DNA of 35,920 nt from a virus (Duplodnaviria > Heunggongvirae > Uroviricota > Caudoviricetes), in the IMG/VR virus record IMGVR_UViG_649989946_000004. One strand, given 5' to 3'. The notes under the pieces were generated by a model, which saw nothing but the letters and a program-made list of their open reading frames with translations, was not told where the DNA came from and made no database searches. Below are positions 5,300 to 35,186 of the stretch, piece by piece (position 1 is the first letter of the stretch; the number at the start of each line of letters is the position of its first letter). A program made the translations under genes and the position numbers.

Positions 5300-5653
5300 T
5301 TATTTGGGTTTCTGACATTGTGTATTTCTTAATCGTGTCATCGTTAAAAAGAATAGTAAGTTCTTTTTCGTACCGTTCGTTCCATTATGGAATAATCCAT
5401 AGAATGGAATAAAAGTGGTGCCATTAACTTTTACTTTTGCAAAGGCGTACTTCCAGATCTCGTTTCCACTGTCAGTATATGAAACAGCATCAGGAGAACC
5501 AAAGTAAGATTTAACCTCATTCTTGGTTGTTTTACCTTCCTGAAGTTTAGACTGGACACTAATTTCAGTTTCATTTTTGAGTTGCTGGTTGCCTGAAGAA
5601 GCACACCCAGCCAATACAGATGCCATCATGGCAGCGATTAGGATTTTTCTCAT
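5300..5653 (-). CDS. Prophage lipoprotein (signal peptide + lipobox LAGC; BamE/SmpA-OmlA-like motif) at the rexAB-equivalent position
   Basis: 117-aa ORF MRKILIAAMMASVLAGC...; motif G.SPD...G.EIWKY resembles BamE-like lipoproteins. C-terminus likely frame-shifted at the T5 run 5334-5338: corrected frame would read ...GTKKELTILFNDDTIKKYTMSETQINSKSGWAD and end at 5278, 12 nt before the terminator. Confidence 0.6.
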   Translation of the reverse strand: MRKILIAAMMASVLAGCASSGNQQLKNETEISVQSKLQEGKTTKNEVKSYFGSPDAVSYTDSGNEIWKYAFAKVKVNGTTFIPFYGLFHNGTNGTKKNLLFFLTMTRLRNTQCQKPK

Positions 5654-5882
5654 TTTATGTTTCCATTCATTATAATCAGAAACATCTTAACATAATGATT
5701 CGAAATAAAAACCGCTACGAGATAGGGGGACATTTTGCTGACAGTAGCAACAAATCTCAGCTAACAACGAGAATATTTACTGAAATATGCAAACAGATTT
5801 GGCGTTCTTATAGAGAATTTAGTGCAATATCTAATCCGAGTGGTATAAACCTTAACCTTCGCTCCCTTAAGTCGTAGATAAA

Positions 5883-6572
5883 TTAACCATGCTTCCTGTA
5901 CGTCTGCGGCATGCTTCCAATGACCTTACCGAATATGAACACCCGGTTCATCTCGTCTTTCTCGATCGGGTCCCACGGCGAGTAGCTCTTGTTATCAGAG
6001 ATAACCAGCAGCTTATCCTTCATCATTTGAAGACGTTTTACATGGGCAGTGTCGTCGTACAGAAACGCATAGATGCCATCACCGTCGAAAGATTTAACAG
6101 TGATATCAACGAACAGCAGGTCACCTGGTTCGATCGTCCCTGACATGCTGTCACCTCGCACGTTAATGATGCGGATATTTTCCGCCTTCCTGCCATCGAA
6201 CATGTGACGAGCATCGTCAAACGAGTACTCAACCGAGCGTAGAACTTCTACAAACTCACGGTTGATTACACCTGGCCCGGCACTGACTTCTATATCAAGA
6301 ACGTCAATTTTGAAGTATTTGGAATGGCTGACAGTTGATTGTATTGGTTGCACTGTACTGTCTGACATATTTCCAACGCCAGAAGATAACCATTCTGCGC
6401 GCACACCCAAAGCGTTCGCGATCTCCACGATTTTAGTTGTTTGGTTAGCTTTCCCTGTTTCGATTTTCTGAATAGCAGCTTGGCTAACCCCGACCAAATC
6501 CCCAAGCGCCTTTTGTGTAAGGCCTCGCGCTAATCTGGCTTCTTTAAGTCTTTCTGAGAGTGTTGTTTTCAT
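5883..6572 (-). CDS. cI: CI-type prophage repressor (HTH_XRE + S24 LexA-like peptidase domain)
   Basis: 229-aa ORF with N-terminal HTH (LTQKALGDLVGVSQAAIQKIETGK) and C-terminal autocleavage domain (GDSM ... HVKRL); ATG has no SD, consistent with a leaderless PRM-type transcript. Confidence 0.9.
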   Translation of the reverse strand: MKTTLSERLKEARLARGLTQKALGDLVGVSQAAIQKIETGKANQTTKIVEIANALGVRAEWLSSGVGNMSDSTVQPIQSTVSHSKYFKIDVLDIEVSAGPGVINREFVEVLRSVEYSFDDARHMFDGRKAENIRIINVRGDSMSGTIEPGDLLFVDITVKSFDGDGIYAFLYDDTAHVKRLQMMKDKLLVISDNKSYSPWDPIEKDEMNRVFIFGKVIGSMPQTYRKHG

Positions 6573-6676
6573 AGATCAAATGTACAACCAAGGTTTTATT
6601 TCATCAAACGAAAATGGTTGTTGACTAAAAACAACCATAGTTTTAATCTTGATTCGGATTAACCACGGAGGTTGTT
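6573..6676. promoter_or_regulatory. OR/PR/PRM immunity switch region
   Basis: 21-bp palindrome GGTTGTTGACTAAAAACAACC (6616-6636) overlapping a -35 TTGACT (6621-6626), 17-nt spacer, -10 TAATCT (6644-6649) pointing at cro; divergent cI start at 6572. Confidence 0.6.
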
Positions 6677-6907
6677 ATGAACCCAGCAATCAAAACAGCG
6701 ATCAATATCGTTGGTTCACAAAAGAAACTAGGCGATGCCTGCGAAGTTTCACAGCAGGCCGTCTATAAGTGGCTTCACAACAAAGCAAAGGTATCCCCTG
6801 AACATGTCGGCAGCATTGTTACGGCTACTGGTGGAGTTGTGAAGGCATACCAGATTCGCCCGGATCTTCCGAAGTTGTTTCCACACACCGAAAAGAACGC
6901 AGCTTAA
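6677..6907 (+). CDS. cro: Cro-like transcriptional regulator (YdaS-type HTH)
   Basis: 76-aa ORF with GGAGG SD, divergent from cI; HTH-like segment QKKLGDACEVSQQAVYKW. Confidence 0.75.
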   Translation: MNPAIKTAINIVGSQKKLGDACEVSQQAVYKWLHNKAKVSPEHVGSIVTATGGVVKAYQIRPDLPKLFPHTEKNAA

Positions 6908-6919
6908 ATTTCCATTTCA

Positions 6920-6933
6920 CGCTCTTTAACAAT
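6920..6933 (+). promoter_or_regulatory. boxA-like antitermination element (putative nutR boxA)
   Basis: Sequence CGCTCTTTAACAAT immediately downstream of cro matches the boxA consensus (CGCTCTTTA / rrn-type GCTCTTTAACAA); no obvious boxB hairpin follows. Confidence 0.35.
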
Positions 6934-6976
6934 AAGCAATCAACTTAACAGTCAATTCAAACTAAAGGAGTCAATT

Positions 6977-9230: not shown

Positions 9231-9529
9231 CGGGCAAAGAGGCAATTATTCATTACCTGGGGACGCATAAGAGCTTCTGTGCGCAGGACGTTGCTGCGGT
9301 AACAGGCGCAACAGTAACCAGTATAAATCAGGCTGCGGCTAAAATGGCACGGGCAGGAATCTTGGTCGTTGATGGTAAGGTCTGGCGAACGGTGTATTAC
9401 CGGTTCGCTACCAGGGAAGAACGGGAAGGAAAGGTGAGCACGAATCTGATTTTCAAGGAGTGTCGCCAGAGTGCCGCGATGAAACGAGTGTTGGCAGTGT
9501 ATGGAGATATGAACTTAAACTTGCTGTGA
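9227..9529 (+). CDS. ren: Ren
   Basis: 100-aa ORF MTGKEAIIHYLGTH...KVWRTVYYRFATREEREGK matches lambda Ren. Confidence 0.85.
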   Translation: MTGKEAIIHYLGTHKSFCAQDVAAVTGATVTSINQAAAKMARAGILVVDGKVWRTVYYRFATREEREGKVSTNLIFKECRQSAAMKRVLAVYGDMNLNLL

Positions 9530-9777
9530 CGGTTTTCATCGGTAACACACCATGTAATCTAGCAGTCAGCTTAGAAATAGGAGCGGCAGTTAAAGATTTT
9601 TCAGTTAGTAGAAAATTACTGTTATTGCAGGGATCTAATCACCGGAGAGTCGTTCCATTTGTCTTATGATTACCTGAAGTCCGTTAGTTCGTTGGTAATC
9701 ACCGTTTTTGTTAGAGAAGTAAGCATCGCTGACAAAATATTCTCAACGATGCCTGCTTTATTGCTACTACAAATTAA

Positions 9778-11278
9778 TTAAATTGCATCTGCAAACTCTG
9801 GGGTTTTTCGCTCAGGTATAATTGATGAGTTGCTGTTGTCACTTTTTTTATTTTCATGATTACGAATAGCCAATGACTCATTAAAGTCTTTTGCGACTGC
9901 TGTCTCAATAAATTCAATTTCTGAATCAGAGTGTTTTTTAACAGCTTCTTTGATCTCATCCAGAGTAACATAGAAAAACTCTTTTCTACGATTTACAAGA
10001 TTGACTCTCTTTTTATCGAAGACATCATGTAGTTTTTTTCTAATGATGGAGCGTCCTCCGAATAAATCATGGCATGTACATCAAAAATAAAAGGAACAGA
10101 TGCATCACCGAGCTCATTTACACGGTCTTGCGGATCAAGACGTCGTGTCATGCCTATTTTATAAACATTCTCCCCAAAAGAACCTATGTTCGAAATAATA
10201 TAAACATGACCTTGTTTGGTTTGTTGTGCCATGGATAATGCTCTTTGATGCTTTGATTCAGCCTGCGACAAACTCTGTTCTAGTTCGGCAATGCGATTTT
10301 CGAGGCGCTGCTTCATGTCACCAGTAACTTTTTCCATTTCCTTTCTTGCAGCTTCAATTGCTTTTTTATAACGGCGCTCTTCTGCCTCTGCGTCTTGCAT
10401 GGCCTTTTCTATTTCTCGTTGTGCACGCTCCTCCTCTCTCATTTGTGCCCTTATTTCTGCCTGTTCTTCTTTTTCTTTCTGTTTTTGCTCACGATATTCA
10501 TGGGTAAGCCACAATTCCTCAAGTTTTTTATTGAGGTATTTAGTGTTTATATATATATGATTTTGCTCGTTTAGTTTATTTATGGCCTCAAATGCCTTTG
10601 TGATGCGTTCTTCCATTTTAGTGATGTTTTTCCACGTGCAATTGCTAATTGCAGCATCACATTCATTATTAAATGCTCTAGTAGTTAGCCTGATATTTCT
10701 GTCTGTCATTTTTTTACCCTCTGCTCGAGAGCCTTCAACAGTCCATTGGGTTGTACAATATACTGCGCCAGAGTGGGTTTTATCCCGCAGCATTAATTTC
10801 TGTTCATCCCTGATGGATTTTATTTTGTTTTTAAATTGCTCTGAATCTTCAAAATTAAAATGAGGTTCGTAAAATCCTAGTTCGGCTAGCTCAACATCTT
10901 CTGAATAAATAGAAATTTGCCTTACTAGTTTATCATATATTTCTTTCTTCTCTTTATAAGTTCTTCTTAGCTCTTGGATTTGTTTATTGATACCATCCAT
11001 TTTTTCAATGGTGTTTGTTAGTTCATTATTGGCATTTTCTTTTACTTTTAGGGATTCTTCTTTTATTATGGAGCATTCTTGCTCTGTTTTCTCAATAAGC
11101 TTCTTACATTCTTCTTCTACATTAAAATAATCTGCAAAGCGAGATTTGTATTCTTCATTTTTTTGATTGCTATCACTTAATTCTAATTGTATTTTTTGAT
11201 GCGTTTGATTGCAGCTATATAAAGAACAAGAACAACCAATAAAAATATGATTGCAAGTAATAGAGGAGTTTGAGTCAT
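9778..11278 (-). CDS. Membrane-anchored coiled-coil protein with C-terminal T5orf172/GIY-YIG-like domain (DUF4041-like architecture); reading frame interrupted twice at homopolymer runs
   Basis: ATG at 11278 encodes a TM helix (MTQTPLLLAIIFLLVVLVLYIAAIKRIKK) that stops unless the T6 run 11192-11197 is read as 7; main 435-aa ORF (9993-11300) has a long coiled coil and GHVYIISNIGSFGENVYKIGMTRRLDPQDRVNELGDASVPFIFDVHAMI; the domain continues in the -1 frame (LHDVFDKKRVNLVNRRKEFFYVTLDEIKEAVKK...) to a stop at 9778 if the T7 run 10043-10049 is read as 8. Confidence 0.65.
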
Positions 11279-11587
11279 TCGTGCTATTCCTTACGGACAA
11301 TTTAAGACGTTTTGTATTAAATCCTGTTCAATGTGTATGCGGGTGATTGCTACCGCTTACAATCTTCATAATTATCAGTTAGATAGACTCGCTAGTAAAT
11401 AATTTCATTTTTTGCAATATTCTTATTGAATATTTCAATTTATGAAATGAACTCTTTATCCTTTCAAGGCGAAAGGTTTCTTCTTCGGAAATATTTGCTC
11501 TCGTGTGACGTATAAAGACCTTTGATTTTCAAAAATCAGTAGGGAATAATATAGTTACTGTCGGCCTGAACACCCGGTGGTGGGGTT

Positions 11588-11692
11588 GCGCTAAACGGGG
11601 ACGTTTATGCGCACACACAATCCAAACTCTCATCTCCATTCACAGATGCAGAAATGCACCTACGATTTTTTACATTCGGTGTTTTACTTCGA
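11588..11692. repeat. Direct repeat copy A (~105 bp, ~90% identical to copy B)
   Basis: GCGCTAAACGGGGACGTTTATGCGCACA...TTCACAGATGCAGAAATGCACCT... recurs at 13521-13625. Confidence 0.8.
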
Positions 11693-11737
11693 CAGCCAGA
11701 ATTGGGAGTCTCTATTCGTCTGGCGGCTAAAGGTGAT

Positions 11738-11827
11738 ATGGAAATCGTTATGTTTTGGCCTGAGGTAGTTGTAACTGTTGTAGCAGCTATGGCTGTGATC
11801 ATCATGGTGTCCATTTACTGGGGTTGA
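11738..11827 (+). CDS. Small hydrophobic peptide ORF (29 aa), speculative
   Basis: AAGGTGA SD then ATG; MEIVMFWPEVVVTVVAAMAVIIMVSIYWG is a single predicted TM segment; lies just after repeat copy A. Confidence 0.25.
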   Translation: MEIVMFWPEVVVTVVAAMAVIIMVSIYWG

Positions 11828-11913
11828 CGACATGATTTATCCGGCGCTATATTCTGTGCGTTGCCGCAAAATCGGCACACGGGATTGGCGTCCCGGGATA
11901 CTACTCAACGCAT

Positions 11914-11934
11914 ACCGCGTTAAGCGGTTTTTTT
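11914..11934 (+). terminator. Possible weak rho-independent terminator
   Basis: Short stem ACCGC-GTTAA-GCGGT followed by T7. Confidence 0.3.
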
Positions 11935-12090
11935 GTGCGCTAAGCACGGCTATGCCCAAATTATGGTGGGCTGTGTGAGGGCTTCTTCGGAAGCGCCGGG
12001 TTTGAGTAGCCGGTTACGCCAACCTTACACAGTTCACCACCAGTCGATTGGCGTCGTTGGTGGTGATGGTTAACCTGATGAGGTGATACT

Positions 12091-12699: not shown

Positions 12700-12933
12700 A
12701 GTCACTAGTTAGAAATACTGCCAGCATTCTGCGATGACGGAAGTGCTGGCATTTTTTTGGTAATGTGCGAGTCCATTTCATAAAATACGGGTACTGGAAC
12801 TGGACGATATAATCTAAAAGATACCATTATCAGTAGCATTAAAATCGCTATGTGCCGATACGGATATAAATTATATTGATTGTTCACATACCTTATTGGA
12901 TATTACTGAGGGGTGTTTATATAAGGTGTAACG

Positions 12934-16783: not shown

Positions 16784-17210
16784 CGTGAGCCCTTTTTTTG
16801 AACTATTATTAAAAAATGATGTCACTGCGCGATAAATATTCATCTAATCAATGTGATTATTTCAAGATGTAAGTTTTGGTTTCTCGTTTGATTTGTGAAG
16901 TAGATCTCTATTTTTATCTGAACTTTTTTCTATCGAATCCTATTCATGGCTCTTGGCTGAATAAAAATAAATCTATTAGCCAATTTATATTAACGGCTGT
17001 CATTTATAAGTGCTCTATAATTTGAAGGTTCAATTTAAACCGGCTAAAAATAACGCTGGAAATTATTTGTTGGTTATTTGTTGATATTTGCTTATGTATT
17101 TGTAGTGGTGTTTTCAATACTCGGTAGCATTCTCGCAAATATCATTTAGTGGTTTACGTACGTAAAAAATTGGTTATGCTGTTAAGAGTGGTTACTTCGT
17201 CACACAGCTT

Positions 17211-19761: not shown

Positions 19762-19766
19762 TCACC
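19762..19766. repeat. IS2 target-site duplication, right copy (TCACC)
   Basis: See left copy. Confidence 0.8.
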
Positions 19767-20720: not shown

Positions 20721-20879
20721 GTTTTTGCATTTTTATCGGCCACCATCATCTTTGCATCTTATTGATTATTAATGGTTATTTGTTTTTTGTATGTCGAATT
20801 GAGCGGTTTTTGTTCGACATCGAACGCGTTTTCTTAAAGTTGTTCGCACGATGCATGTTTAAAGCTCTCCGGAGGAAAT

Positions 20880-21371: not shown

Positions 21372-23428
21372 TGCTGAATCAGGAAACCGCAAAGGCAGCA
21401 CGAACCGATTCAGGTTATATCCTTCGCGCACCGAGACGAATGCTGGTTGCTGATGCCGTTGCTCAGTATATGCGGGTGCCCATGGGGGCCGGGAATTCAG
21501 TCCCGTGGGATCCGCTGGTGGCACCGTATGTTATTGAGCCGATGAACTGCCTGGCCTCGCGTGAATACGACGCAGTGATATTTGTTGGCCCGGCACGAAC
21601 TGGCAAGACTATCGGCCTGATTGACGGCTGGGTGATTTACAATGTGATTTGCGATCCTGCTGATATGCTGATCATTCAGATGACGGAGGAAAAAGCCCGC
21701 GAACACTCCAAAAAACGACTTGCCAGAACGTTTCGCGTCAGCCCGGAAGTGGTCAGTCGCCTGAGTCCGAACAAAAATGACAACAACGTTTATGACAGAA
21801 CATTCCTTGCTGGCAACTACCTGAAAATCGGCTGGCCGTCAGTCAATATCATGTCCTCATCAGATTATAAATGCGTGGCGCTGACGGATTATGACCGTTT
21901 TCCGGAAGATATTGATGGCGAGGGGGATGCCTTCTCTCTTGCCTCAAAACGTACCACCACATTTATGTCCAGTGGTATGACGCTGGTGGAGAGTTCCCCC
22001 GGCAGGGATGTGAAGGATGTGAAATGGCGACGGACTTCACCGCATGAGGCTCCACCAACCACGGGGATACTGTCGCTCTATAACCGTGGCGATCGCCGTC
22101 GCTGGTACTGGCCCTGTCCACACTGTGGTGAGTATTTTCAGCCCTGCGGCGATGTGGTTGCTGGTTTCCGTGATATTGCCGATCCCGTGCTGGCAAGTGA
22201 GGCGGCTTATATTCAGTGTCCTTCCTGTTCAGGACGGATTATGCCTGAACAAAAACGTGAGCTGAACGGACGTGGGGTCTGGTTGCGGGATGGTGAATCC
22301 ATCAATGCGGATGGCAGTCGTTATGGTGATCCCCGACGCTCACGTATTGCGTCATTCTGGATGGAGGGTCCGGCAGCTGCTTACCAGACACTCTCGCAAC
22401 TCGTTTACAAACTGCTTACTGCAGAACAGGAATACGAGACAACCGGAAGTGAAGAAACACTCAAGACGGTTATCAATACCGACTGGGGATTACCTTATCT
22501 TCCCCGTGCCAGCATGGAGCAACGAAAAAGTGAACTGCTTGAGCAGCGGGCAGAGCCAGTTCCTTCCCGCAGTGTGCCGGATGGCGTTAATTTCCTGGTG
22601 GCGACAGTTGATGTGCAGGCGGGACGTCATCGCCGTTTTGTGGTTCAGGTAACGGGCTATGGCAGCCGTGGCGAACGCTGGATTATTGATCGTTACAACA
22701 TCACGCAGTCATTGCGCGGTGACAGCGACGGGGAGAGCCAGCGAATTGATCCGGCCAGCTATCCGGAAGACTGGGATGTCCTGCTGACGGATGTTTTTCA
22801 TAAAAGCTGGCCGCTGGCCTCCGATCCTTCTCAACAAATGCGACTGATGGCAATGGCGGTGGACTCCGGCGGTGAAGACGGGGTCACTGATAATGCCTAT
22901 AAATTCTGGCGTCGTTGCCGTCGTGATGGCCTTGGTAAACGTATTTACCTGTTTAAGGGCGACAGCATCCGGCGCGCAAAACTGATCACCCGTACATTCC
23001 CTGATAACACCGGACGAACGGGCCGACGGGCGCAGGCCGCAGGTGATGTGCCGCTCTGGCTTCTTCAGACGGATGCACTGAAAGACCGGGTGAATAACGC
23101 GTTATGGCGTGACTCGCCAGGTCCCGGCTATGTGCATTTCCCTGACTGGCTGGGGAGCTGGTTTTACGACGAACTGACGTATGAAGAGCGGAGCAGTGAC
23201 GGGAAATGGAGTAAGCCGGGTCGCGGTGCCAACGAAGCTTTTGACCTGATGGTGTATGCCGAGGCTCTGGTCATTCTGCATGGATACGAAAAGATCCGCT
23301 GGCCGGATGCACCGGAGTGGGCGAGCCGGGAAACCTGGCTGGAGTGTGTCCAGGACAGTACCGAACCGTCATCCTCACCGGAACCGGTATCCACGCCTGT
23401 TAAAAAACAAAACGGAAGAAAACAGTAA
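21371..23428 (+). CDS. Terminase large subunit (GpA-like)
   Basis: 685-aa ORF; Walker-A-like FVGPARTGKT, nuclease domain, zinc-finger-like CPHCGEYF...CPSC as in lambda gpA-family terminases. Confidence 0.9.
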   Translation: MLNQETAKAARTDSGYILRAPRRMLVADAVAQYMRVPMGAGNSVPWDPLVAPYVIEPMNCLASREYDAVIFVGPARTGKTIGLIDGWVIYNVICDPADMLIIQMTEEKAREHSKKRLARTFRVSPEVVSRLSPNKNDNNVYDRTFLAGNYLKIGWPSVNIMSSSDYKCVALTDYDRFPEDIDGEGDAFSLASKRTTTFMSSGMTLVESSPGRDVKDVKWRRTSPHEAPPTTGILSLYNRGDRRRWYWPCPHCGEYFQPCGDVVAGFRDIADPVLASEAAYIQCPSCSGRIMPEQKRELNGRGVWLRDGESINADGSRYGDPRRSRIASFWMEGPAAAYQTLSQLVYKLLTAEQEYETTGSEETLKTVINTDWGLPYLPRASMEQRKSELLEQRAEPVPSRSVPDGVNFLVATVDVQAGRHRRFVVQVTGYGSRGERWIIDRYNITQSLRGDSDGESQRIDPASYPEDWDVLLTDVFHKSWPLASDPSQQMRLMAMAVDSGGEDGVTDNAYKFWRRCRRDGLGKRIYLFKGDSIRRAKLITRTFPDNTGRTGRRAQAAGDVPLWLLQTDALKDRVNNALWRDSPGPGYVHFPDWLGSWFYDELTYEERSSDGKWSKPGRGANEAFDLMVYAEALVILHGYEKIRWPDAPEWASRETWLECVQDSTEPSSSPEPVSTPVKKQNGRKQ

Positions 23429-23468
23429 CTGATGATGTTAACCCCTGGCTGACTTCCGGAGGATGGTT

Positions 23469-23681
23469 ATGAACCAGAATGATATCGAAGCCATGATTCA
23501 GCGTTATATGGAAGCTGAAATGGCGGTGCTGGACGGAAAATCCGTCACCTTTAATGGTCAGCAGATGACCATGGAAAACTTATCTGAGATCCGGCAGGGA
23601 CGGCAGGAGTGGGAGCGCCGCCTTGCGGCTCTGATTACACGACGACGGGGGCATCCCGGGTACCGGCTGGCGAGGTTCTGA
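23469..23681 (+). CDS. Head-tail joining protein W-like
   Basis: ~70-aa ORF after GGAGG; C-terminus ...ITRRRGHPGYRLARF resembles lambda gpW (...QRRRGPAGFYV). Confidence 0.7.
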   Translation: MNQNDIEAMIQRYMEAEMAVLDGKSVTFNGQQMTMENLSEIRQGRQEWERRLAALITRRRGHPGYRLARF

Positions 23682-25189: not shown

Positions 25190-25202
25190 TTCCTGGTTCA
25201 GG

Positions 25203-27161
25203 ATGCAGGCTGGTCACCAGAGTGACGCGGATATTTATATTTATGACGAGATTGGTTTCTGGGGTGTTACAGCGAAGCAGTTTATCAGTGATCTGAATGC
25301 ACTGGGCGATATCACCCACATTAATCTCCATATTAATTCACCGGGTGGCGATGTCTTTGAAGGCATCGCCATTTTTAATGCGCTGAAAACACATGGTGCG
25401 TCCATTACCGTTTATGTCGACGGTGTGGCGGCGTCAATGGCGTCGGTCATTGCGATGGTGGGAAACCCGGTCATTATGCCGGAAAACACCTTCATGATGA
25501 TTCATAAACCATTTGGCTTTACGGGCGGTGATGCGGAGGACATGCGCACCTATGCCGACCTGCTCGATAAAGTTGAGGCGGTTCTGTTACCCGCTTATGC
25601 ACAGAAAACCGGGAAAACCACCGATGAAATTGCTGTCATGCTGGCGGATGAGACCTGGATGTCCGGTGCCGAATGTCTGGCACATGGATTTGCTGATCAG
25701 GTATCGCCAGCCGTTAAGGCAATGGCATGTATTCAGTCAAAACGTACAGAGGAATTTAAAAAGATGCCGGAATCCATTCGAAACATGATTACTCCGCCAC
25801 GCAACAGTGCTCCACGCGTACAGGATGATGAACCTGCAGCCTCCCGGACGCCAGTGCAGGCAGCAGCACCCGTGGTGGATGAAAACAGTATCCGTGCGCA
25901 GGTACTGGCAGAGCAAAAAGCGCGTGTAAACGGTATTAATGATCTGTTTGCCATGTTTGGCGGGCGTTATCAGACGCTGCAGGCCCAGTGTCTTGCCGAT
26001 CCTGAATGTTCGCTGGAGCAGGCCCGCGAAAAGTTGTTGAACGAGATGGGGCGCGAGTCCACGCCATCCAATAAAAATACCCCGGCTCATATTTATGCCG
26101 GTAACGGTAATTTTGTGGGGGACGGGATCCGCCAGGCGCTGATGGCGCGTGCCGGATTTGAAAAAACCGAACGTGATAATGTCTACAACGGGATGACCCT
26201 GCGTGAATATGCCCGTATGTCACTGACTGAACGGGGTATTGGGGTTTCCGGTTATAACCCGATGCAGATGGTCGGTGCGGCGTTCACACACAGTACGTCT
26301 GACTTCGGTAATATTCTGCTGGATGTTGCGAACAAAGCCATTCTGCAGGGCTGGGAAGATGCCCCTGAAACCTATGAACAGTGGACGCGGAAAGGTCAGT
26401 TGTCTGATTTTAAAATTGCCCATCGCGTGGGTATGGGGGGCTTCAGTGCTCTGCGTCAGGTGCGTGAAGGGGCGGAATATAAATACGTCACCACCGGAGA
26501 TAAACAGGCCACTATTGCACTGGCGACCTATGGCGAGCTGTTCAGTATCACCCGTCAGGCCATTATCAATGATGATCTGAATATGCTGACCGATGTCCCG
26601 ATGAAGCTGGGCCGTGCGGCGAAATCCACTATTGCCGATCTGGTTTATGCCATTCTGACGTCTAACCCGAAAATCTCCACAGATAATGTAAGTCTGTTCG
26701 ATAAAGCGAAACATGCAAACGTACTGGAGGGCGCTGCAATGGACGTGGCATCGCTGGATAAAGCCCGCCAGTTGATGCGTGTTCAGAAAGAGGGGGAGCG
26801 TCATCTGAATATTCGTCCTGCGTTCGTACTGGTACCGACGGCGATGGAGTCTGTTGCTAACCAGGTCATTCGCTCCTCAAGTGTCAAGGGGGCTGACATT
26901 AACGCCGGTATTATTAACCCGGTGAAAGATTTTGCGACCGTTATTGCAGAGCCTCGTCTTGATGATAACAGCCAGACCACCTTCTACCTGGCTGCGTCAA
27001 AAGGCTCCGATACGATTGAAGTGGCTTATCTCAACGGTGTGGATACGCCATATATTGATCAGATGGAGGGCTTCAGTGTGGATGGCGTGACAACGAAAGT
27101 GCGTATTGACGCCGGTGTCGCGCCAGTTGATCACCGCGGTCTGGTGAAATGTACGGCGTAA
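25203..27161 (+). CDS. Prohead protease (ClpP/S14-like) fused to major capsid protein (HK97 fold)
   Basis: 652 aa from ATG at 25203; N-terminal ClpP-like region (HINSPGGDVFEGIAIFNALK...AASMASVIAM), linker, then capsid-like C-terminal half; no separate capsid gene follows. Confidence 0.8.
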   Translation: MQAGHQSDADIYIYDEIGFWGVTAKQFISDLNALGDITHINLHINSPGGDVFEGIAIFNALKTHGASITVYVDGVAASMASVIAMVGNPVIMPENTFMMIHKPFGFTGGDAEDMRTYADLLDKVEAVLLPAYAQKTGKTTDEIAVMLADETWMSGAECLAHGFADQVSPAVKAMACIQSKRTEEFKKMPESIRNMITPPRNSAPRVQDDEPAASRTPVQAAAPVVDENSIRAQVLAEQKARVNGINDLFAMFGGRYQTLQAQCLADPECSLEQAREKLLNEMGRESTPSNKNTPAHIYAGNGNFVGDGIRQALMARAGFEKTERDNVYNGMTLREYARMSLTERGIGVSGYNPMQMVGAAFTHSTSDFGNILLDVANKAILQGWEDAPETYEQWTRKGQLSDFKIAHRVGMGGFSALRQVREGAEYKYVTTGDKQATIALATYGELFSITRQAIINDDLNMLTDVPMKLGRAAKSTIADLVYAILTSNPKISTDNVSLFDKAKHANVLEGAAMDVASLDKARQLMRVQKEGERHLNIRPAFVLVPTAMESVANQVIRSSSVKGADINAGIINPVKDFATVIAEPRLDDNSQTTFYLAASKGSDTIEVAYLNGVDTPYIDQMEGFSVDGVTTKVRIDAGVAPVDHRGLVKCTA

Positions 27162-27247
27162 ACATCGCAGACAACAACTCTGATGGCCCGTAAGGGCTTT
27201 TTTTGTACCTGAAATCAGCCCCTGAACGGGGCTGTGTGGAGACAGTT

Positions 27248-27571
27248 ATGGCAAAGAATTTTGTAGAAGAAGGAAAAACGGTGGCGATTGTTGCCAGTGC
27301 AGCCATCAGCAGCGGAGATCTGGTGCAGGTGGGTGATGTTTTTGCGGTGGCGCTGACCGATATTCCACAAGGTGAAACAGGCGACGGTATGACCGAAGGT
27401 GTGTTTATGCTGCCTAAGCTGAAAACGGATGACATGAAAACGGGTAAGAAGGTTTATCTGAAGTCCGGAAAAGTTCAGCTGACTAACAGCGGCTCTGAGC
27501 CGCTGGTCGGGGTTGTCTGGGCAGATGCCGGAACCAGTGCAGAAGAAGTGCCGGTAAAACTCAATGTCTGA
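27248..27571 (+). CDS. DUF2190-type head protein (putative decoration/cement protein)
   Basis: 107 aa from ATG after GGAGA; small Gly/Val-rich protein immediately after the capsid gene. Confidence 0.6.
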   Translation: MAKNFVEEGKTVAIVASAAISSGDLVQVGDVFAVALTDIPQGETGDGMTEGVFMLPKLKTDDMKTGKKVYLKSGKVQLTNSGSEPLVGVVWADAGTSAEEVPVKLNV

Positions 27572-27839
27572 TCCCTTTTCCCGGCTGGCAGCGCGTATGG
27601 ATGCTATCACGGTCAGAAAGATGGGAAAGACAGCCTCGATTAATGATGTCGATATGACCGTGATCCCGGGAGAAACACTGGCAGAGCTGAATGCCCTGTC
27701 CGGACCTGCGGTCTCTCTGGTGGTGTTTTCTTCGGGATACCGCCCACGGCGCGGGGATCGCGTTGTTTATGACGGACAACAATGGACGGTCACACGGCAT
27801 GAACGCTTTAACGGTAAGCCAATGATCTTTATTGAGTAA
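27564..27839 (+). CDS. Head-tail adaptor/completion protein (FII-position)
   Basis: 91-aa ORF overlapping the previous stop; position between head and tail genes. Confidence 0.5.
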   Translation: MSDPFSRLAARMDAITVRKMGKTASINDVDMTVIPGETLAELNALSGPAVSLVVFSSGYRPRRGDRVVYDGQQWTVTRHERFNGKPMIFIE

Positions 27840-27850
27840 AGAGGTGTGGG

Positions 27851-28429
27851 ATGAAGGGGCTTGAGAATGCCATCCGCAATCTGAACAGCCTTGATACCCG
27901 TATGGTGCCACAGGCCAGCGCATGGGCGATAAACCGTGTGGCACAGAAAGCGGTCTCGGTTGCCACCCGGCAGGTTGCCGGGAATACCGTTGCGGGAGAT
28001 AACCAGGTGAAAGGGATCCCCCTGAAACTGGTACGTCAGCGTGTCCGGGTGTTTAAAGCCAGTCCGTCAGGAAAAATGACGGCCAGGATCCGCGTTAACC
28101 GGGGCAATCTGCCCGCCATTAAGCTGGGGACAGCCCGGGTCAGACTGGCCCGGCGTGGTGGAAAACTGCAGTACCGTGGCAGTGTGCTGAAGGTGGGTAA
28201 ATATCTTTTCCGGGATGCGTTTATTCAGCAACTGGCGAATGGTCGCTGGCATGTGATGCGGCGTATTGATGGCAAAAATCGTTACCCCATTGATGTGGTG
28301 AAAATCCCGCTTTCCGGACCGCTGACACAGGCATTTGAAGATGCCCGCGACCGCATCATTGCTGCGGAAATGCCGAAACAGCTGGGGTATGCACTGAAAC
28401 AACAACTGAGGTTATGGCTGACCCGATGA
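27851..28429 (+). CDS. Z: Tail completion protein Z
   Basis: 192-aa ORF; MKGLENAIRNLN...RVNRGNLPAIKLG...NGRWHVMRRIDGKNRYPIDVVKIP...LGYALKQQLR closely matches lambda Z as recalled. Confidence 0.8.
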   Translation: MKGLENAIRNLNSLDTRMVPQASAWAINRVAQKAVSVATRQVAGNTVAGDNQVKGIPLKLVRQRVRVFKASPSGKMTARIRVNRGNLPAIKLGTARVRLARRGGKLQYRGSVLKVGKYLFRDAFIQQLANGRWHVMRRIDGKNRYPIDVVKIPLSGPLTQAFEDARDRIIAAEMPKQLGYALKQQLRLWLTR

Positions 28430-28827
28430 ACCGACATACACAAATCCGCCAGGCCGTACTGGCACGCCTTCGGGAACAGTGTGGAGACAGCGCCACGTTT
28501 TTTGACGGGCTTCCGGCATTTATTGATGCGCAGGAACTGCCTGCCGTGGCGGTGTGGCTGAGTGATGCTCAGTACACCGGAAAAATGACGGATGAAGATG
28601 ACTGGCAGGCTGTTCTGCATATTGCTGTCTTCATCCGGGCACAGGCACCGGATTCAGAGCTGGATATGTGGATGGAGAGCACCATTTTCCCGGCCCTGAA
28701 TGATATACCGGCACTTTCCGGACTCATCGACACCCTGATCCCTCTCGGTTTTAACTATCAACGTGATAATGAGATGGCCACCTGGGCGATGGCGGAAATC
28801 ACGTACCAGATCACGTACACGAATTAA
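28426..28827 (+). CDS. U: Tail terminator U
   Basis: ATGA overlap with Z stop; ...ATFFDGLPAFIDAQELPAVAVWL...WQAVLHIAVFIRAQAPDSELDMWMES...DIPALSGLI...ITYQITY matches lambda U. Confidence 0.85.
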   Translation: MNRHTQIRQAVLARLREQCGDSATFFDGLPAFIDAQELPAVAVWLSDAQYTGKMTDEDDWQAVLHIAVFIRAQAPDSELDMWMESTIFPALNDIPALSGLIDTLIPLGFNYQRDNEMATWAMAEITYQITYTN

Positions 28828-28838
28828 AGGAGGTGGCA

Positions 28839-29582
28839 ATGACCACACCAAATCCACTGGCAAAAACGAAAGGTGCGGGAACGACGTTCTGGATGTACAC
28901 CGGCAAGGGCGATGCGTTTGCGAACCCTTTATCGGACACTGACTGGCTGCGTCTTGCGATGGTGAAGGATCTGCAACCTGGCGAAATGACCGCTGATGCA
29001 GAAGATGACTCTTATCTCGATGATGAAGATGCAGACTGGAAAACGACAACCCAGGGGCAGAAATCCGTCGGTGATACTTCGGCGACGCTGGCCTGGCGTC
29101 CGGGTGACAGCGGGCAGAAAAAACTGGTTCAGTTGTTCGACTCCGGTGAAGTCTGCGCGTTTCGTATCAAATATCCCAACGGCACTGTTGATGTTTTCCG
29201 TGGCTGGCTGAGCTCACTGGGTAAAACCATTGCCTCAAAAGACGTGATGACCCGCACAGTGAAAATCAGCGGTGTGGGGCGTCCGTATCTGGCAGAGGAA
29301 GGCACTGAAACAGTGAGCGTTACCGGGCTGACGGTGGCACCGGCATCTGCCAGTGTAAAAGTGGGAGCAACCACCACGCTGACCTTTACAGTAAAACCTG
29401 ACGGAGCCAGTGACAAAGCGATCAGTGTGCATTCGACAGATCCACAGACTGCCACGGTGACCCTGAACGGGCTTGTGGCCACGGTGAAAGGCGTGAAGCA
29501 GGGCAGTGTCAGCATTGTGGGCATGACTTCTGACGGCGATTTTGTGGCAGTGGCTGCGGTGGCTGTCAGCGCCGCAGGTTAA
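28839..29582 (+). CDS. V: Major tail protein V with C-terminal Ig-like (Big_2) domain
   Basis: AGGAGG SD; KGAGTTFWMYTGKGDAFANPLSDTDWLRLAMVKDL...YLDDEDADW...NGTVDVFRGW matches lambda V. Confidence 0.9.
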   Translation: MTTPNPLAKTKGAGTTFWMYTGKGDAFANPLSDTDWLRLAMVKDLQPGEMTADAEDDSYLDDEDADWKTTTQGQKSVGDTSATLAWRPGDSGQKKLVQLFDSGEVCAFRIKYPNGTVDVFRGWLSSLGKTIASKDVMTRTVKISGVGRPYLAEEGTETVSVTGLTVAPASASVKVGATTTLTFTVKPDGASDKAISVHSTDPQTATVTLNGLVATVKGVKQGSVSIVGMTSDGDFVAVAAVAVSAAG

Positions 29583-29639
29583 CAGGACGATACTCATCAT
29601 TTGCCCCGGTTATCCGGGGCTTTTTTGCAGGTGGAGAAC

Positions 29640-30029
29640 ATGATGTTTCTGAAACAGGGCACGTTTAATTATGAAAAGCAGTCCGTGGTGCTCAGTGAGC
29701 TGTCCGGGCTGCAGAGAATTGAATATCTGGCGTTTGTTCAGCAGCGAACGGCAAAGTTTGATGCCGAAGAGGGAGAACTGCCGGAGGCTGAACGACAGAT
29801 TGCTTTTCTGCGGATGGGGATGGATATCAATGCCTGGCTGGTTTCCCGCTCACTGTGGAATGCGGAACAGTCTCAGGATGTTGAGACGCTTTGCGCATCC
29901 GTTATTACAACATGGTCGTATGATGCCCTGGGAGCGGGGGCGGAGATGGTTCTGTCGCTGAGCGGTATGGGAGCCATTGAGAATGCCGGGGATTTGGAGC
30001 ATGAGGTGCTGACGCCGGAAAAGTCCTGA
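29640..30029 (+). CDS. G: Tail assembly chaperone G
   Basis: MFLKQG...VLSELSGLQRIEYLAF matches lambda G (MFLKTESFE...TLSELSALQRIEHLA). Confidence 0.85.
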   Translation: MMFLKQGTFNYEKQSVVLSELSGLQRIEYLAFVQQRTAKFDAEEGELPEAERQIAFLRMGMDINAWLVSRSLWNAEQSQDVETLCASVITTWSYDALGAGAEMVLSLSGMGAIENAGDLEHEVLTPEKS

Positions 30030-30367
30030 CGCGGGAAATGCAGTTTGTCATGCGGCTTGCCCGGGAGTTCCGGCGGGCAGACTGGCGGCGGATGCTGTCG
30101 GAAATGTCGGCCACTGAGCTTGGTGAGTGGGGCGATTATTTCCGGATGCAGAGCTTCAGTGATGTGTGGATGGATGCGCAGTTTGCCTCGCTGAAGGCAT
30201 TGATCGTGAGAATGGTGTCCGGTAGCAGTGATGCTGCGGTGGCTGATTTCAGCCTTTTACCGGAAGAGAACGGGATACCGGAGCGAACGGACGAAGAACT
30301 GATGCATCTTGGGGAAGGTATTTCCGGAGGTGTGCGTTATGGACCAGATAGCCAACCTGGTCATTGA
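29640..30367 (+). CDS. Tail assembly chaperone GT (programmed -1 frameshift product)
   Basis: The -1 frame is open from 30005 and continues 112 codons past the G stop (30027-30029) to 30367; the shift window 30005-30029 contains GGAAAAG; conserved G/GT arrangement of lambda-like tails. Confidence 0.7.
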
Positions 30368-33300
30368 TTTGGGGATTGATGCGGCAGAGTTTAAAAATGA
30401 AATTCCCCGTATCAAAAACCTTCTGAATGGTGCAGCCAGCGATGCAGAACGGTCTTCTGCCCGTATGCAGCGTTTTATGGAGCGTCAGACTCAGGCCGCC
30501 CGGCAGACAATGCAGGCGGCTTCTTCGGCTGCAACAGCCGCATCCGTCCATGCGCAGACGGTGGAGAAGAGCGCACAGGCTCATGAACGCATGGCCCGCG
30601 AGGTGGAGCAAACCCGCCAGCGTATGGAGGCACTGAGCCAGAAAATGCGCGAGGAACAGGCGCAGGCCATGGCTCTGGCGGAGACTCAGGATAAAGCGGC
30701 TGCCGCGTTTTATCGTCAGATTGACAGTGTGAAACAGGCCAGTGCGGGGCTGCAGGAATTACAGCGTATTCAGCAGCAGATCCGACAGGCCAGAAACAGT
30801 GGCGGGATTGGTCAGCAGGATTATCTGGCGCTGATTTCTGAGGTTACGGCGAAAACCGGTGTTCTTACGCAGGCTGAGGCAGAGGCTACCCGACAGAAAG
30901 TGGCGTTTATCCGTCAGCTTAAAGAGCAGGCAACCCGCCAGAATCTTTCTTCTTCTGAGTTGCTTCGTGCTAAGGCTGCCCAGCTGGGGGTAAGCAGTGC
31001 TGCAGAAGTGTATATCCGCAAAATGGAGCAGGCAGGAAAAGCCACGCATTCGCTGGGTCTGAAAAGTGCAGCGGCCCGCCAGGAGATAGGCGTTCTGATA
31101 GGTGAACTGGCTCGCGGCAATTTAGGTGCGCTGAGGGGATCCGGGATAACGCTGGCTAACCGTGCCGGATGGATAGACACACTGATGTCACCGAAAGGCA
31201 TGATGCTGGGCGGGGTTATTGGCGGTATTGCCGCGGCCGTCTATGGTCTGGGTAAAGCCTGGTATGATGGTCAGAAGGAGGGGGAAGAATTTAACCGCCA
31301 GTTGTCGCTGACGGGGCATTATGCCGGAGTCACTGCCGGGCAGCTGTGGACGCTCAGTCGTGCTATTTCCGGGAATGGTATTACGCAACATGCTGCAGCC
31401 GGTGCGCTGGCTCAGGTGGTGGGGAGTGGTGCATTTCGTGGAAACGATATCGGTATGGTGGCGAGAGCTGCCGCACAGATGGAGCGATCGGTTGGCCAGT
31501 CGGTCAGCGATACCATAAATCAGTTTAAGCGGCTGAAGGATGATCCTGTAAATGCCGCGAAGGCTCTGGACAATGAGCTGCATTTTCTTACTGCCACTCA
31601 GCTTGAGCAGATACGCGTCCTTGGGGAACAGGGGCGGTCCAGTGATGCGGCACGGATAGCCATGTCTGCACTGGCAGAGGAAACCGGTCGGCGTACTGCG
31701 GATATTGATAATAACCTCAATGCGCTGGGCAGTACGCTGAAGTATCTGTCTGATTTATGGAGTCGTTTCTGGGATGCGGCCATGAATATTGGTCGTGAAG
31801 ACTCGCTGGATGAACAGATTTCCGCTTTACAGGAGAAAGTGTCGCGGGCGAAAAGACTCCCCTGGACGGCATCATCTTCTCAGGTTGAGTACGATCAGCA
31901 GCGTCTTAACGAGCTTCAGGAGAAAAAACGCCAGAAGGATTTGCAGGATGCAAAAGAGCAGGCAGAGCGGAATTATCAGGAGCAACAGAAACGCCGTAAT
32001 GCTGAAAATGCTGCACTGAACCGGATGAATGAAACGGAAGCAGCACGACATCAGCGTGAAATTGCGCGTATTAATGCCATGCAGTACGCCGATCAGGCTG
32101 TCAGGGATGCGGCGATACAACGTGAAAATGAACGTTACGAGAAAGCCCTGGCATCCGGTAAGAAAAAACACGCGAACCCCGTAATGATGAGGCCACCCGG
32201 TTATTGCTGCAGTACAGTCAGCAACAGGCACAGGTGGAAGGACAGATTGCTGCTGCCAGACAGTCAGCAGGCATTGCCACGGAAAGGATGACAGAAGCGC
32301 ATAAACAGCTTCTGGCTCTGCAGCAGCGCATCAGCGACCTGGACGGGAAAAAACTGACGGCAGATGAAAAGAGTGTGCTGGCCCGTAAAGATGAACTGAT
32401 TCAGGCACTGACGCTGCTGGATGTAAAACAGCAGGAGCTTCAGAAACAGACGGCACTCAACGAGCTGAAGAAAAAACAATTCAGCTGACCAGTCAACTGG
32501 CTGAAGAAGAGCGCGCTCAGCGTCAGCAACATGACCTGGATATCGCCACGGTGGGTATGGGTGATCAGCAGCGGCAGCGATATCAGGTACAACTGAGTCT
32601 TCGCCAGAAATACCAGCAACAGCTGGAGCAGTTGAGGCGGGATAGTGAGCAGAAAGGAACATATAACACGGATGACTACAGAAAGGCCGAGCAGGCGCTG
32701 ACGGAGAGCCTGAACCGACAACTGAATGAGAATCGCCGTTACTGGCAACAGCTTGAAGTTGTGCAGGGTAACTGGAAAAACGGAGTCCTGCGTGCATTTC
32801 AGGATTTTACCGTGGATGCAGATAATACGGCAGGAACAGCAGAACAGGTGTTCTCGTCAGCCTTCAGCAACATGGGAAATGGCCTGGCAACTTTTGTCAC
32901 TACCGGCAAACTCAATTTCAAATCCTTCACCTCTTCTGTGCTGTCAGATATGGCGAAAATCCTGGCGCAGGCAACCATGATGAAATCGATAAAAGGGATT
33001 GGCAGTGTACTGGGATTTGATCTCAGCAGCCTTTCCCTGAATGCCAATGGGGGGATTTATCAGTCTGCTGATTTGAGTCGTTACAGTGGCACGGTGGTTA
33101 ACCGTCCGACGTTTTTTGCTTTTGCAAAAGGCGCGGGTGTGATGGGGGAAGCGGGACCTGAAGCCATTCTGCCACTGCGTCGTGGTGCTGACGGTAAGCT
33201 GGGGGTTGTGGCGGATATTGGTGGTTCAGGTATGGCGATGTTTGCCCCGCAGTACAACATCGAGATCAATAACGATGGCACGAACGGGCAGATAGGTCCG

Positions 33301-33402
33301 GCTGCCCTGAAGGTGGTTTATGACCTCGGGAAAAAAGCGGCAGCGGACTTTATGCAACAGCAGGCCCGTGATGGTGGTCGGTTAAGTGGAGCATATCGGT
33401 AA
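30339..33402 (+). CDS. H: Tail tape measure protein H (frame broken twice at A6 runs in this assembly)
   Basis: Three successive ORFs (30309-32291, 32204-32488, 32551-33402) are rejoined by adding one A to each of the A6 runs at 32163-32168 and 32471-32476; coiled-coil-rich; C-terminus ...NIEINNDGTNGQIGPAALKVVYD...DGGRLSG matches lambda H. Confidence 0.85.
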
Positions 33403-33731
33403 TGGAGACGTTTCACTGGAAAGTGCGCCCGGATATGAATGTGGTATCAGAGCCGAAAGTGGTGACAGTGAAGCTGGGCGATGGTTATGAACAGCGTCGT
33501 GCGGCGGGACTGAATAACCAGTTGTCGATTTACAGCGTGACGATACGTGTTCGTAAATGTGAACACCCATCTTTAAAAGCCTTTCTGGAACGGCACGGTG
33601 GCGTCCGCGCATTTCAGTGGACGCCACCTTATGACTGGAAGCCGATCAGGGTGGTTTGTCGTAAATGGTCGGCAAGCGTGGGGGCGCTGTGGATAACCAT
33701 AACGGCAGATTTTGAACAGGTCGTGGCATAG
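33402..33731 (+). CDS. M: Minor tail protein M
   Basis: METFHWKVRPDMNVVSEPKVV...GDGYEQRRAAGLN...FLERHGGVRAFQWTPPYDWKPIRV matches lambda M. Confidence 0.9.
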   Translation: METFHWKVRPDMNVVSEPKVVTVKLGDGYEQRRAAGLNNQLSIYSVTIRVRKCEHPSLKAFLERHGGVRAFQWTPPYDWKPIRVVCRKWSASVGALWITITADFEQVVA

Positions 33732-33740
33732 GAGGCTCTG

Positions 33741-34438
33741 ATGCAGGATATTCCACAGGAAACACATCATGAGACGACACGCCTCACTCAGTCAGCCCAG
33801 GTGGTGCTCTGGGAAATCGATCTGACAGAGGTCGGTGGTGAACGTTATTTTTCTGTAATGAGCAGAACGAAAAAGGTGAGCCGGTTACCTGGCAGGGGCG
33901 GCAGTATCAGGCATACCCCATTCAGGGGACGGGATTTGAACTGAATGGCAAGGGCAGTGCTGCCCGTCCGACACTGACGGTTTCTAACCTGCACGGCATG
34001 GTCACCGGGATGGCGGAAGACCTGCAGAGTCTGGTCGGCGGAACGGTGGTCCGGCGTAAGGTTTACGCCCGTTTTCTGGATGCGGTGAACTTCGTCAACG
34101 GAAACAGTGACGCCGATCCGGAGCAGGAGGTGATTAGCCGCTGGCGCATCGAGCAGTGCAGCGAACTGAGCGCGGTGAGTGCCTCTTTTGTACTGTCCAC
34201 GCCGACGGAAACGGACGGTGCCGTTTTTCCGGGACGTATCATGCTGGCCAACACCTGCACCTGGACCTATCGCGGTGACGAGTGCGGTTATCACGGTCCG
34301 GCGGTCGCGGATGAATATGATCAGCCGACGTCCGATATCACGAAGGATAAATGCAGCAAATGCCTGAGCGGCTGTAAGTTTCGCAATAACGTCGGCAACT
34401 TTGGCGGCTTCCTTTCCATTAACAAACTTTCGCAGTAA
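33741..34438 (+). CDS. L: Minor tail protein L (frame broken at the T5 run 33848-33852 in this assembly)
   Basis: N-terminal ORF MQDIPQETHHETTRLTQSAQVVLWEIDLTEVGGERYF and C-terminal ORF ...MVTGMAEDLQSLVGGTVVRRKVYARFLDAVNF... both match lambda L; reading one more T restores GERYFFCNEQNEKGEPVTWQGRQY... Confidence 0.85.
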
Positions 34439-34443
34439 ATCCC

Positions 34444-35186
34444 ATGACAGAGACAGAATCAGCGATTCTGGCGCACGCCCGGCGATGTGCGCCAGCGGAG
34501 TCGTGCGGCTTCGTGGTGAGAACACCGGAGGGGGAAAGATATTTTCCCTGCGTGAATATCTCTGGTGAGCCGGAGGCGTATTTCCGGATGTCGCCGGAGG
34601 ACTGGCTGAGTGCAGAAATGCAGGGAGAGATTGTGGCGCTGGTCCACAGCCACCCCGGTGGTCTGCCCTGGCTGAGTGAGGCCGACCGGCGGCTGCAGGT
34701 GCAGAGTGATTTGCCGTGGTGGCTGGTCTGCCGGGGGCGATTCATAAATTCCGCTGTGTGCCGCATCTCACCGGGCGGCGCTTTGAGCACGGGGTGACGG
34801 ACTGTTACACGCTGTTCCGGGACGCTTACCATCTGGCGGGAATTGAGATGCCGGATTTTCATCGCGGGGATGACTGGTGGCGTCACGGCCAGAATCTCTA
34901 TCTTGACAATATGGAGGCAACGGGTTTTTACCGTGTCCCACTGACAGAGGCGCAGCCTGGCGACGTGCTGCTGTGCTGTTTTGGTTCATCGGTGCCGAAT
35001 CATGCCGCCATTTACTGTGGCGACGGCGAGCTGCTGCACCATATTCCTGAACAACTGAGTAAACGAGAGAGGTACACCGACAAATGGCAGCGACGCACAC
35101 ACTCCCTCTGGCGTCACCGGGCATGGCACGCATCTGCCTTTACGGGGATTTGCAACGATTTGGTCGCCGTATCGACCTTCGTGTGA
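34444..35186 (+). CDS. K: Tail protein K (NlpC/P60-type) with one apparent single-base deletion near 34736-34740
   Basis: MTETESAILAHARRCAPAESCGFVV... and ...IHKFRCVPHLTGRRFEHGVTDCYTLFRDAYHLAG... both match lambda K but lie in different frames. Confidence 0.85.

Follow-up and report, generated by a model that had tools for sequence, protein, structure and literature searches.

Single-base deficits at homopolymer runs in a lambdoid Escherichia coli prophage are very probably sequencing or assembly errors

Genuinely decayed elements are exemplified by the K-12 cryptic prophages DLP12, Rac and Qin, and interrupted frames that are restored during decoding have precedents in lambda G/GT, dnaX and the IS3-family transposases. 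One-base under-calls, for their part, are typically left behind when an assembly is built from long reads only (nanopore R9-type, or PacBio at low coverage) or from flow chemistry. The residual errors of nanopore sequences take the form of homopolymer indels, which generate frameshifts and inflate pseudogene counts (Homopolish, PMC8011154). Replication slippage is also homopolymer-prone, with an exponential increase with run length (PMC8510543).

The window, i.e. the whole stretch of 35,920 nucleotides analyzed here (IMG/VR record IMGVR_UViG_649989946_000004), is a lambdoid prophage of E. coli that extends from int to the beginning of J. It joins a lambda-like early region, with PD-lambda-1/SNIPE and a BamE-like lipoprotein moron, to head and tail genes of the mEp460/Ayreon type. 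The window holds prophage DNA only. It was compared with RefSeq prophages that are near-identical to it (99.7-99.9% identity) and with the plaque-forming phages Ayreon and mEp460. Relative to the near-identical prophages, the window is exactly one base short at each of nine homopolymer runs: eight of these deletions lie in six genes, namely those for the BamE-like lipoprotein, PD-lambda-1/SNIPE (two), TerL, H (two), L and K, and the remaining one is intergenic. The nine runs, followed by two ambiguous tracts, are:

2070..2074, no strand: A5 (A6 in relatives), intergenic, flanked by the TraR/DksA-like gene and the early-left gene that follows
5364..5368, minus strand: T5 (T6 in relatives), in the BamE-like lipoprotein gene 5274-5653, which is split
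10033..10039, minus strand: T7 (T8 in relatives), in the PD-lambda-1/SNIPE (DUF4041 + T5orf172) gene 9778-11278
11192..11197, minus strand: T6 (T7 in relatives), second PD-lambda-1/SNIPE break, close to the 5' end of the gene
23409..23412, plus strand: A4 (A5 in relatives), in the large terminase gene 21371-23472, near its 3' end
32163..32168, plus strand: A6 (A7 in relatives), first break in the tape measure gene H 30339-33402
32471..32476, plus strand: A6 (A7 in relatives), second break in the tape measure gene H
33848..33852, plus strand: T5 (T6 in most relatives), in the minor tail gene L 33741-34438
34733..34737, plus strand: G5 (G6 in relatives), in the C40 peptidase gene K 34444-35186
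12752..12758, no strand: T7, intergenic, downstream of the P22AR-C-domain gene; outside the count of nine
16793..16799, no strand: T7 (A7 when read along the gene), upstream of the prophage porin ATG (16783) by 10-16 nt; outside the count of nine

Seven frame breaks, six at homopolymers and one in K, had been listed in the original prediction. All seven are real one-base deficits, each mended by one added base, and the coordinates are exact at 11192-11197 (T6), 32163-32168 (A6), 32471-32476 (A6) and 33848-33852 (T5), but two of the breaks were misplaced: the positions given for the lipoprotein run, 5334-5338, read 'cgtgt', the true T5 lying at 5364-5368, and those given for the first run of the nuclease-like gene, 10043-10049, read 'atgatgg', the true T7 lying at 10033-10039. 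The single-base loss in K, which had been described as not in a homopolymer, is real but falls in the G5 run at 34733-34737. The list was also incomplete, as the runs in TerL (23409-23412) and in the intergenic stretch at 2070-2074 had been overlooked.

The deficits follow run length closely. All nine robust events (11/11 when the ambiguous tracts are counted) are inside runs of true length 5-8, composed of A or T except for one G6; runs of at least five bases make up 2.6% of the sequence, yet contain 9/9 events (p ~5e-15). The fraction of runs that is shortened, corrected after the demotion of two T7/T8 polymorphic sites, is 0/367 for runs of true length four, 1/119 for 5-mers, 4/41 for 6-mers, 3/12 for 7-mers and 1/1 for 8-mers; the longest runs in the window itself are shorter than eight, with no run of eight or more. 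Slippage likewise climbs with run length, and thus this dependence alone does not discriminate between error and mutation. The direction of the changes is uniform: no window-only inserted base was found against the relatives, making it 9:0 in favor of deletions, and two genes, PD-lambda-1/SNIPE and H, carry two deletions each. The Dam/Dcm motif context of the window-only substitutions was also examined and gave no convincing pattern.

Comparison with closely related prophages, which had been suggested in the original prediction, found the long alleles at all nine counted sites, and at no site is the short allele of the window present in any of the five closest prophages. In the early region, A6 is present at the 2070 site in references L002, L003 and L005, the last of these with 0 mismatches over the surrounding 601 bases, and the A5 of the window is a probable one-base under-call that leaves the reading frame unaffected. 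Around 5364, 801 bases of the window align with 802 reference bases, a single gap being the sole difference. At 10033, T8 is found in 130 of the 131 E. coli genomes with this segment; the sole T7 genome is TB354, whose copy of PD-lambda-1 is additionally interrupted by IS1. At the five structural-gene sites the long alleles are present in five near-identical prophages and in the viable phages Ayreon and mEp460, e.g. A5 at 23409, where the deletion changes the final ~20 residues of TerL. At 33848 the run is T6 in mEp460, with CT5, equal in length, in Ayreon, and the G6 at 34733 is found in Ayreon and also in phage NT1F31.

Addition of one base per site brings all six proteins to full length. 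When compared with the translations of annotated CDSs from the RefSeq reference prophages, five of them are 100% identical: the BamE-like protein (126 aa; L005 CDS, annotated WP_001226568.1), PD-lambda-1/SNIPE with both sites repaired (500 aa; L002 CDS, annotated WP_000195116.1), TerL (700 aa; L001 CDS), L (232 aa) and K (247 aa). The sixth, H with both sites repaired (1021 aa), shows 99.9% identity to the RefSeq protein. No other lesion, be it a nonsense codon, an IS element or a larger deletion, is present in the six repaired genes. Since repair mends all six interrupted genes, the deficits bear on each pseudogene call made in the window, as had been anticipated.

The population frequency of the alleles was surveyed with 28-mer queries with mismatching spacers against 5,426 complete E. 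coli genomes, covering eight sites for the short alleles and four for the long ones; with DUST masking, runs of at least seven bases are not assessable by 28-mers, and 10033 was checked separately in distant mode. The long-allele queries, for four sites only, matched 4,506 of the 5,426 genomes. The short-allele queries for eight sites matched 54 of the 5,426, with 63 places in total, a median of 1 and a maximum of 3 per genome; this figure has no per-site breakdown, and roughly half of the matches in it are gapped and hence not the short allele. Site by site, the short allele occurs in 0-15 of the 5,426 genomes: no exact match was found at 23409 and none at 11192, one genome has it at 5364, two have it at 2070 (A5), two at 32163 and two at 32471, about six have a same-length short allele at 33848, and about 15 scattered genomes have G5 at 34733, one of them flagged as frameshifted. 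For the 32471 allele, PGAP marks H as frameshifted in strain 204446. An exact 30-mer with the 11192 short allele had no match in the viral and genome contig collections either, and the phage collection contained no record identical to the window. A frameshifted K in L008 was considered as a further instance of the window's allele and rejected, L008 having lost one base at the adjacent CC. The sporadic short alleles in other complete genomes would fit both recurrent error and recurrent mutation.

A natural baseline is provided by six relatives compared with L001 over ~15 kb, which differ by 986 substitutions and 3 one-base indels. Over the same ~15 kb the window has 28 substitutions and 5 one-base indels (Fisher p = 1.3e-6), i.e. 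an indel:substitution ratio about 60-fold above the baseline. Several substitution alleles of the window are found elsewhere (34437 in phages, 35759 in more than 2,000 genomes and 27499 in ~100), and in a census of private substitutions that left out the very common 35759 allele, those at 21265 and 10557 were absent among the matches listed and may be private. This leaves at most two private substitutions versus eight private deletions. In mismatch-repair-deficient E. coli the spectrum is 30,061 substitutions to 5,324 indels (PMC8510543), and under that ratio the private counts have P = 9e-6.

On these sequence comparisons, we consider it very probable that the broken genes are products of sequencing or assembly error, one base having been dropped per run, and that they reflect neither decay nor a frameshifting mechanism. 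The restriction to deletions, the run-length trend, the state of the relatives, the outcome of the repair and the indel:substitution ratios all support homopolymer under-calling over pseudogenisation or programmed frameshifting, the preference already expressed in the original prediction. The sequencing or polishing pipeline would have called one base too few at nine runs; the cause would be base-calling instead of mutation, and the platform was presumably a long-read or flow-chemistry one. The implied error density is ~2.5-3 per 10 kb, i.e. about 1 per 3-4 kb (~Q35); both this density and the frameshifting homopolymer indels agree with the residual nanopore errors described in the literature (PMC8011154). 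The prophage itself is in all likelihood intact.

Were the deletions real, the prophage would be decaying or very recently inactivated, with replication slippage at homopolymers having disabled six genes. Slippage indels do cluster in runs and increase with run length (PMC8510543), relaxed selection is frequent on prophage genes, a few other RefSeq genomes have the same short alleles and are annotated as frameshifted, and the T7 allele of TB354 belongs to a copy of PD-lambda-1 with an additional IS1 interruption. Nevertheless, decay appears improbable, as it would have to produce eight independent frameshifts in six genes with no nonsense codon, IS insertion or deletion beside them, and with zero amino-acid changes in five of the repaired genes (H being at 99.9%). 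Slippage would further have to act in one direction only and strike two genes twice, to exceed by ~60-fold the indel:substitution ratio that six natural relatives show over this region, and to yield private counts that are incompatible even with a mismatch-repair mutator; moreover, no lesion is inherited in common with the closest relatives. It is decidedly improbable that the stated run lengths are right and that these genes were rapidly inactivated solely by eight or more independent -1 slippages. If true, this would imply an extreme deletion-only homopolymer bias in host or phage replication, unlike that of wild-type or mismatch-repair-deficient E. coli, possibly with partial rescue via transcriptional slippage.

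A biological decoding of the window as it stands, with programmed ribosomal frameshifting or transcriptional slippage on A/T runs restoring the frame, would draw on the established capacity of A6 and T6-T7 runs to support low-level slippage of RNA polymerase or the ribosome, and on the one genuine programmed frameshift of lambda-like tail operons, G/GT. However, programmed sites are conserved in homologues, and all close homologues here, including those of two viable phages, are uninterrupted with one more base; equal events occur at the intergenic 2070 site and in a G run; and the events are scattered over six unrelated genes, with none at the G/T junction. Such decoding is exceedingly unlikely. 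The canonical lambda slippery heptamer GGGAAAG is absent at that junction, and its window-wide count is at chance level. Equally little can be said for phase-variable (contingency) tracts as on-off switches of prophage genes, for which the only point in favor comes from the two intergenic tracts that are truly T7/T8 polymorphic. At 12752 L004 has T8 (1 mismatch in 801 bases) and L005 has T7 (99.75% flank identity), and at 16793, upstream of the porin gene, T8 is found in the closest references, L004 and L006, and T7 in L002 and L007. Both tracts were demoted from the list of errors once this polymorphism among the references had been found: the one at 12752 may be a natural length polymorphism or an error, and the one at 16793 is likewise ambiguous. 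As far as the compared sequences go, they show that run lengths in this element do vary genuinely at some places. Against contingency switching, the tracts are short (5-8 bases), the long allele is all but fixed at the coding sites among hundreds to thousands of genomes, the changes go in one direction, and terminase and tail genes as targets offer no rationale for reversible switching; we assign this explanation a probability close to nil.

If the nine counted deficits are under-calls, all pseudogenes of the window, i.e. the BamE-like lipoprotein, PD-lambda-1/SNIPE, TerL, H, L and K, would be spurious, and it would be wrong to annotate the element as a defective prophage or to score its defence gene as inactivated. 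Should the same rate hold assembly-wide, the false frameshifts in a 5-Mb genome would number around a thousand, and inferences on pseudogenes, gene content or phase variation from the source assembly would need polishing first. The significance of the pattern, very probably an artefact, is practical and not biological.

In truly decayed lambdoid prophages genes are likewise interrupted, and PGAP would label them as 'frameshifted' in the same manner; however, real decay leaves mixed lesions (IS elements, deletions, nonsense codons and substitutions) that are shared by descent, whereas the window has only one-base losses at homopolymers. The lambda-like G/GT -1 frameshift belongs to the same operon, and there too read-through requires a change of frame, but its place is the G/T junction and all relatives conserve it, whereas the events in the window are absent from the relatives, lie elsewhere and are partly intergenic. 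Some pipelines leave insertions as well, whereas the window has deletions only. It nevertheless resembles the residual errors of long-read or flow-chemistry assemblies (PMC8011154) in its one-base homopolymer indels, frameshifts in conserved genes, correctability from relatives, error density of about Q35 and many apparently spurious pseudogenes.

The window is a lambdoid E. coli prophage, as indicated by an ORF map and by the annotated RefSeq genomes to which it was compared, and carries nine one-base deletions that are, on the comparative sequence evidence, very probably assembly artefacts. Its left arm shows the order int, xis, exo/bet/gam and kil, followed by a cI-like repressor, cro, O/P/ren, the nin region, Q, a porin moron and the lysis genes. 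A packaging, head and tail module of the mEp460/Ayreon type makes up the right arm, up to the start of J. In relatives icd adjoins the element. The following features are referred to below:

1-1143, minus strand: int, at the start of the left arm
5274-5653, minus strand: moron encoding a small lipoprotein, flanked by the kil/cIII region and the cI-like repressor
9778-11278, minus strand: PD-lambda-1 anti-phage defence gene, now annotated as SNIPE-associated (PADLOC PD-Lambda-1 match, E = 2e-198)
15704-16783, minus strand: OmpC/NmpC-like porin gene
20880-21371: small terminase gene

The cos site is probably located at 20855, the exact position where the alignment of the linear mEp460 and Ayreon phage genomes starts, a short distance upstream of the gene for the small terminase. 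The defence gene lies between ren and the nin region and combines DUF4041 with a T5orf172/MUG113 (GIY-YIG-type) domain. The lipoprotein moron bears the RefSeq name 'outer membrane protein assembly factor BamE', its Pfam BamE match being weak (E = 1.6e-4, 21.8 bits, under the gathering score), and its segment is carried by about 70 complete E. coli genomes. The last ~100 bases (35824-35920, the N-terminus of J) are unlike all tail-module references and seem to have one additional base at each of 35911 and 35916. Rather than error, this suggests a mosaic junction to another J allele, cut off by the end of the window.

Every indel in clean flanking sequence was recorded against the closest references available: strain NT1F31 (99.75% identity across 19762-35920), L002 and L005 (99.8-99.9% across 9500-12000) and, for the 12-17 kb region, L004 and L006. 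Across 5150-5950 a single gap is the sole difference from L005. The listed events comprise eleven in which the window lacks one base, each inside a homopolymer, and none in which it has one extra. For two intergenic T7 runs, at 12752 and 16793, the nearest references have T8 and other close ones T7 (at 12752 L005 has T7 with a flank identity of 99.75%); these are either natural length polymorphisms or errors. Since they are polymorphic among references they were left out, giving a robust set of nine events, all deletions (9:0), eight of them in six genes. The second of these runs belongs to an A7/A8 tract on the gene strand (16783-16799), directly 5' of a Shine-Dalgarno-like AGGG of the porin, whose length varies among genomes (A8 in L004 and L006, A7 in L002 and L007). 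A natural AAA versus AA polymorphism is also seen at 28826 in the short U-V intergenic spacer (L009, L013), common to strain 120899 and phage mEp460, showing that genuine, non-disruptive run-length variation occurs in the tail module.

The original prediction had read the frame breaks as homopolymer under-calling, an interpretation that is supported, while its coordinates and site list need correction. Alignment to the closest references places the losses at 11192 (defence gene), 32163 and 32471 (tape measure H) and 33848 (L) exactly where it had put them. Those in the lipoprotein gene and the first in the defence gene, then termed nuclease-like, are real but lie at T5 5364-5368 instead of 5334-5338 and at T7 10033-10039 instead of 10043-10049. 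The single-base loss in K, thought to be outside a homopolymer, falls in a G5 run (34733-34737; G6 in relatives). Two losses had been missed: A5 to A4 at 23409, towards the 3' end of the gene for the large terminase, and A6 to A5 at the intergenic 2070.

When one base was inserted per site and the products compared with reference CDSs, the BamE-like lipoprotein (126/126 residues), the DUF4041 defence protein (500/500; L002 CDS translation, annotated WP_000195116.1), TerL (700/700), L (232/232) and K (247/247) became identical to them, and H yielded 1021 residues with 99.9% identity, all six proteins being full-length. The portal, protease/capsid, M, I and porin genes are intact without repair. 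The restored genes contain neither a stop codon nor an IS element nor a larger deletion, the lesions being exclusively one-base homopolymer deletions.

The long allele, one base longer than in the window, is present at all five structural-gene sites in five near-identical prophages and in Ayreon and mEp460. A query of concatenated 46-48-mers with the short alleles of eight testable sites, locally validated such that long-allele genomes seed no 28-base word, matched 63 places in 54 of 5,426 complete E. coli genomes (median 1 per genome, at most 3), about half of these matches being gapped alignments without the short allele. By site, the counts were ~15 for the K G5, ~6 for the L T5, two for each H site, two for 2070, one for 5364, none for 11192 and no exact match for 23409. 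The long-allele control, testable at four sites only, matched 12,967 places in 4,506 genomes. In those inspected, PGAP labels the short-allele genomes 'frameshifted'. Of 131 genomes compared at 10033, 130 have T8; besides the window, T7 occurs in TB354 alone (L016 1481-3047), whose defence gene, in contrast to that of the window, is a genuinely decayed copy because an IS1A insertion also splits it.

The K-gene motif GCCGGGGGGC (window 34730-34738; L008 15230-15245) is a recurrent hot spot: strain GDSC2BY4G shows a different one-base loss in it (CC to C), annotated as frameshifted. The cause in these public 'complete' genomes is sequencing error or slippage, arising repeatedly in either case. 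In the phage record ON470578.1 (vB_EcoS-606R10), two entries under the match are named 'tail length tape-measure protein H', suggesting that its H gene is split too, possibly by the same class of error.

The losses depend steeply on run length. Grouped by their true length after repair, 0/367 runs of 4 are shortened, 1/119 of 5, 4/41 of 6, 3/12 of 7 and 1/1 of 8 (the last two classes adjusted for the polymorphic 12752/16793 runs), and the window as given has no run of 8 or more. Runs of at least 5 make up 2.6% of the bases but hold all nine events (p ~5e-15). Slippage mutation likewise favours runs (PMC8510543), as would suit real deletions in a decaying prophage; therefore, indels were weighed against substitutions. 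Over ~15 kb, six relatives differ from the NT1F31 reference by 986 substitutions and three one-base indels, two of which are one shared intergenic AAA/AA polymorphism, whereas the window differs from it by 28 substitutions and five indels (odds ratio 59, Fisher p = 1.3e-6). The substitution alleles of the window are ordinary shared polymorphisms: that at 34437 is present in Ayreon and mEp460, that at 35759 in over 2,000 genomes, and that at 27499 in ~100. In the ~19 kb with good references, no more than two substitutions, those at 21265 and 10557, are candidates for being private, versus eight private deletions. Even mismatch-repair-deficient E. coli, with 30,061 substitutions per 5,324 small indels (PMC8510543), would give at least eight indels in ten private events with P ~ 9e-6, and the uniform direction of the events adds to this. 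Further, decay should have left other types of lesion in the inactivated genes and altered their amino-acid sequences, and neither is seen.

Programmed frameshifting can be ruled out as the general cause because the interrupted arrangement is conserved in no homologue, events of this type also affect an intergenic stretch and a run of G, and no site lies at the G/T junction. The assembly-artefact reading implies an error density of ~2.5-3 per 10 kb (~Q35), and the finding serves quality control; it is not a biological feature. A precedent is presented by the residual error of long-read assemblies, in which homopolymer indels shift frames, inflate pseudogene counts and are correctable from close homologues (PMC8011154); the pattern in the window matches it, both in its frame-shifting homopolymer indels and in their repair from close homologues.
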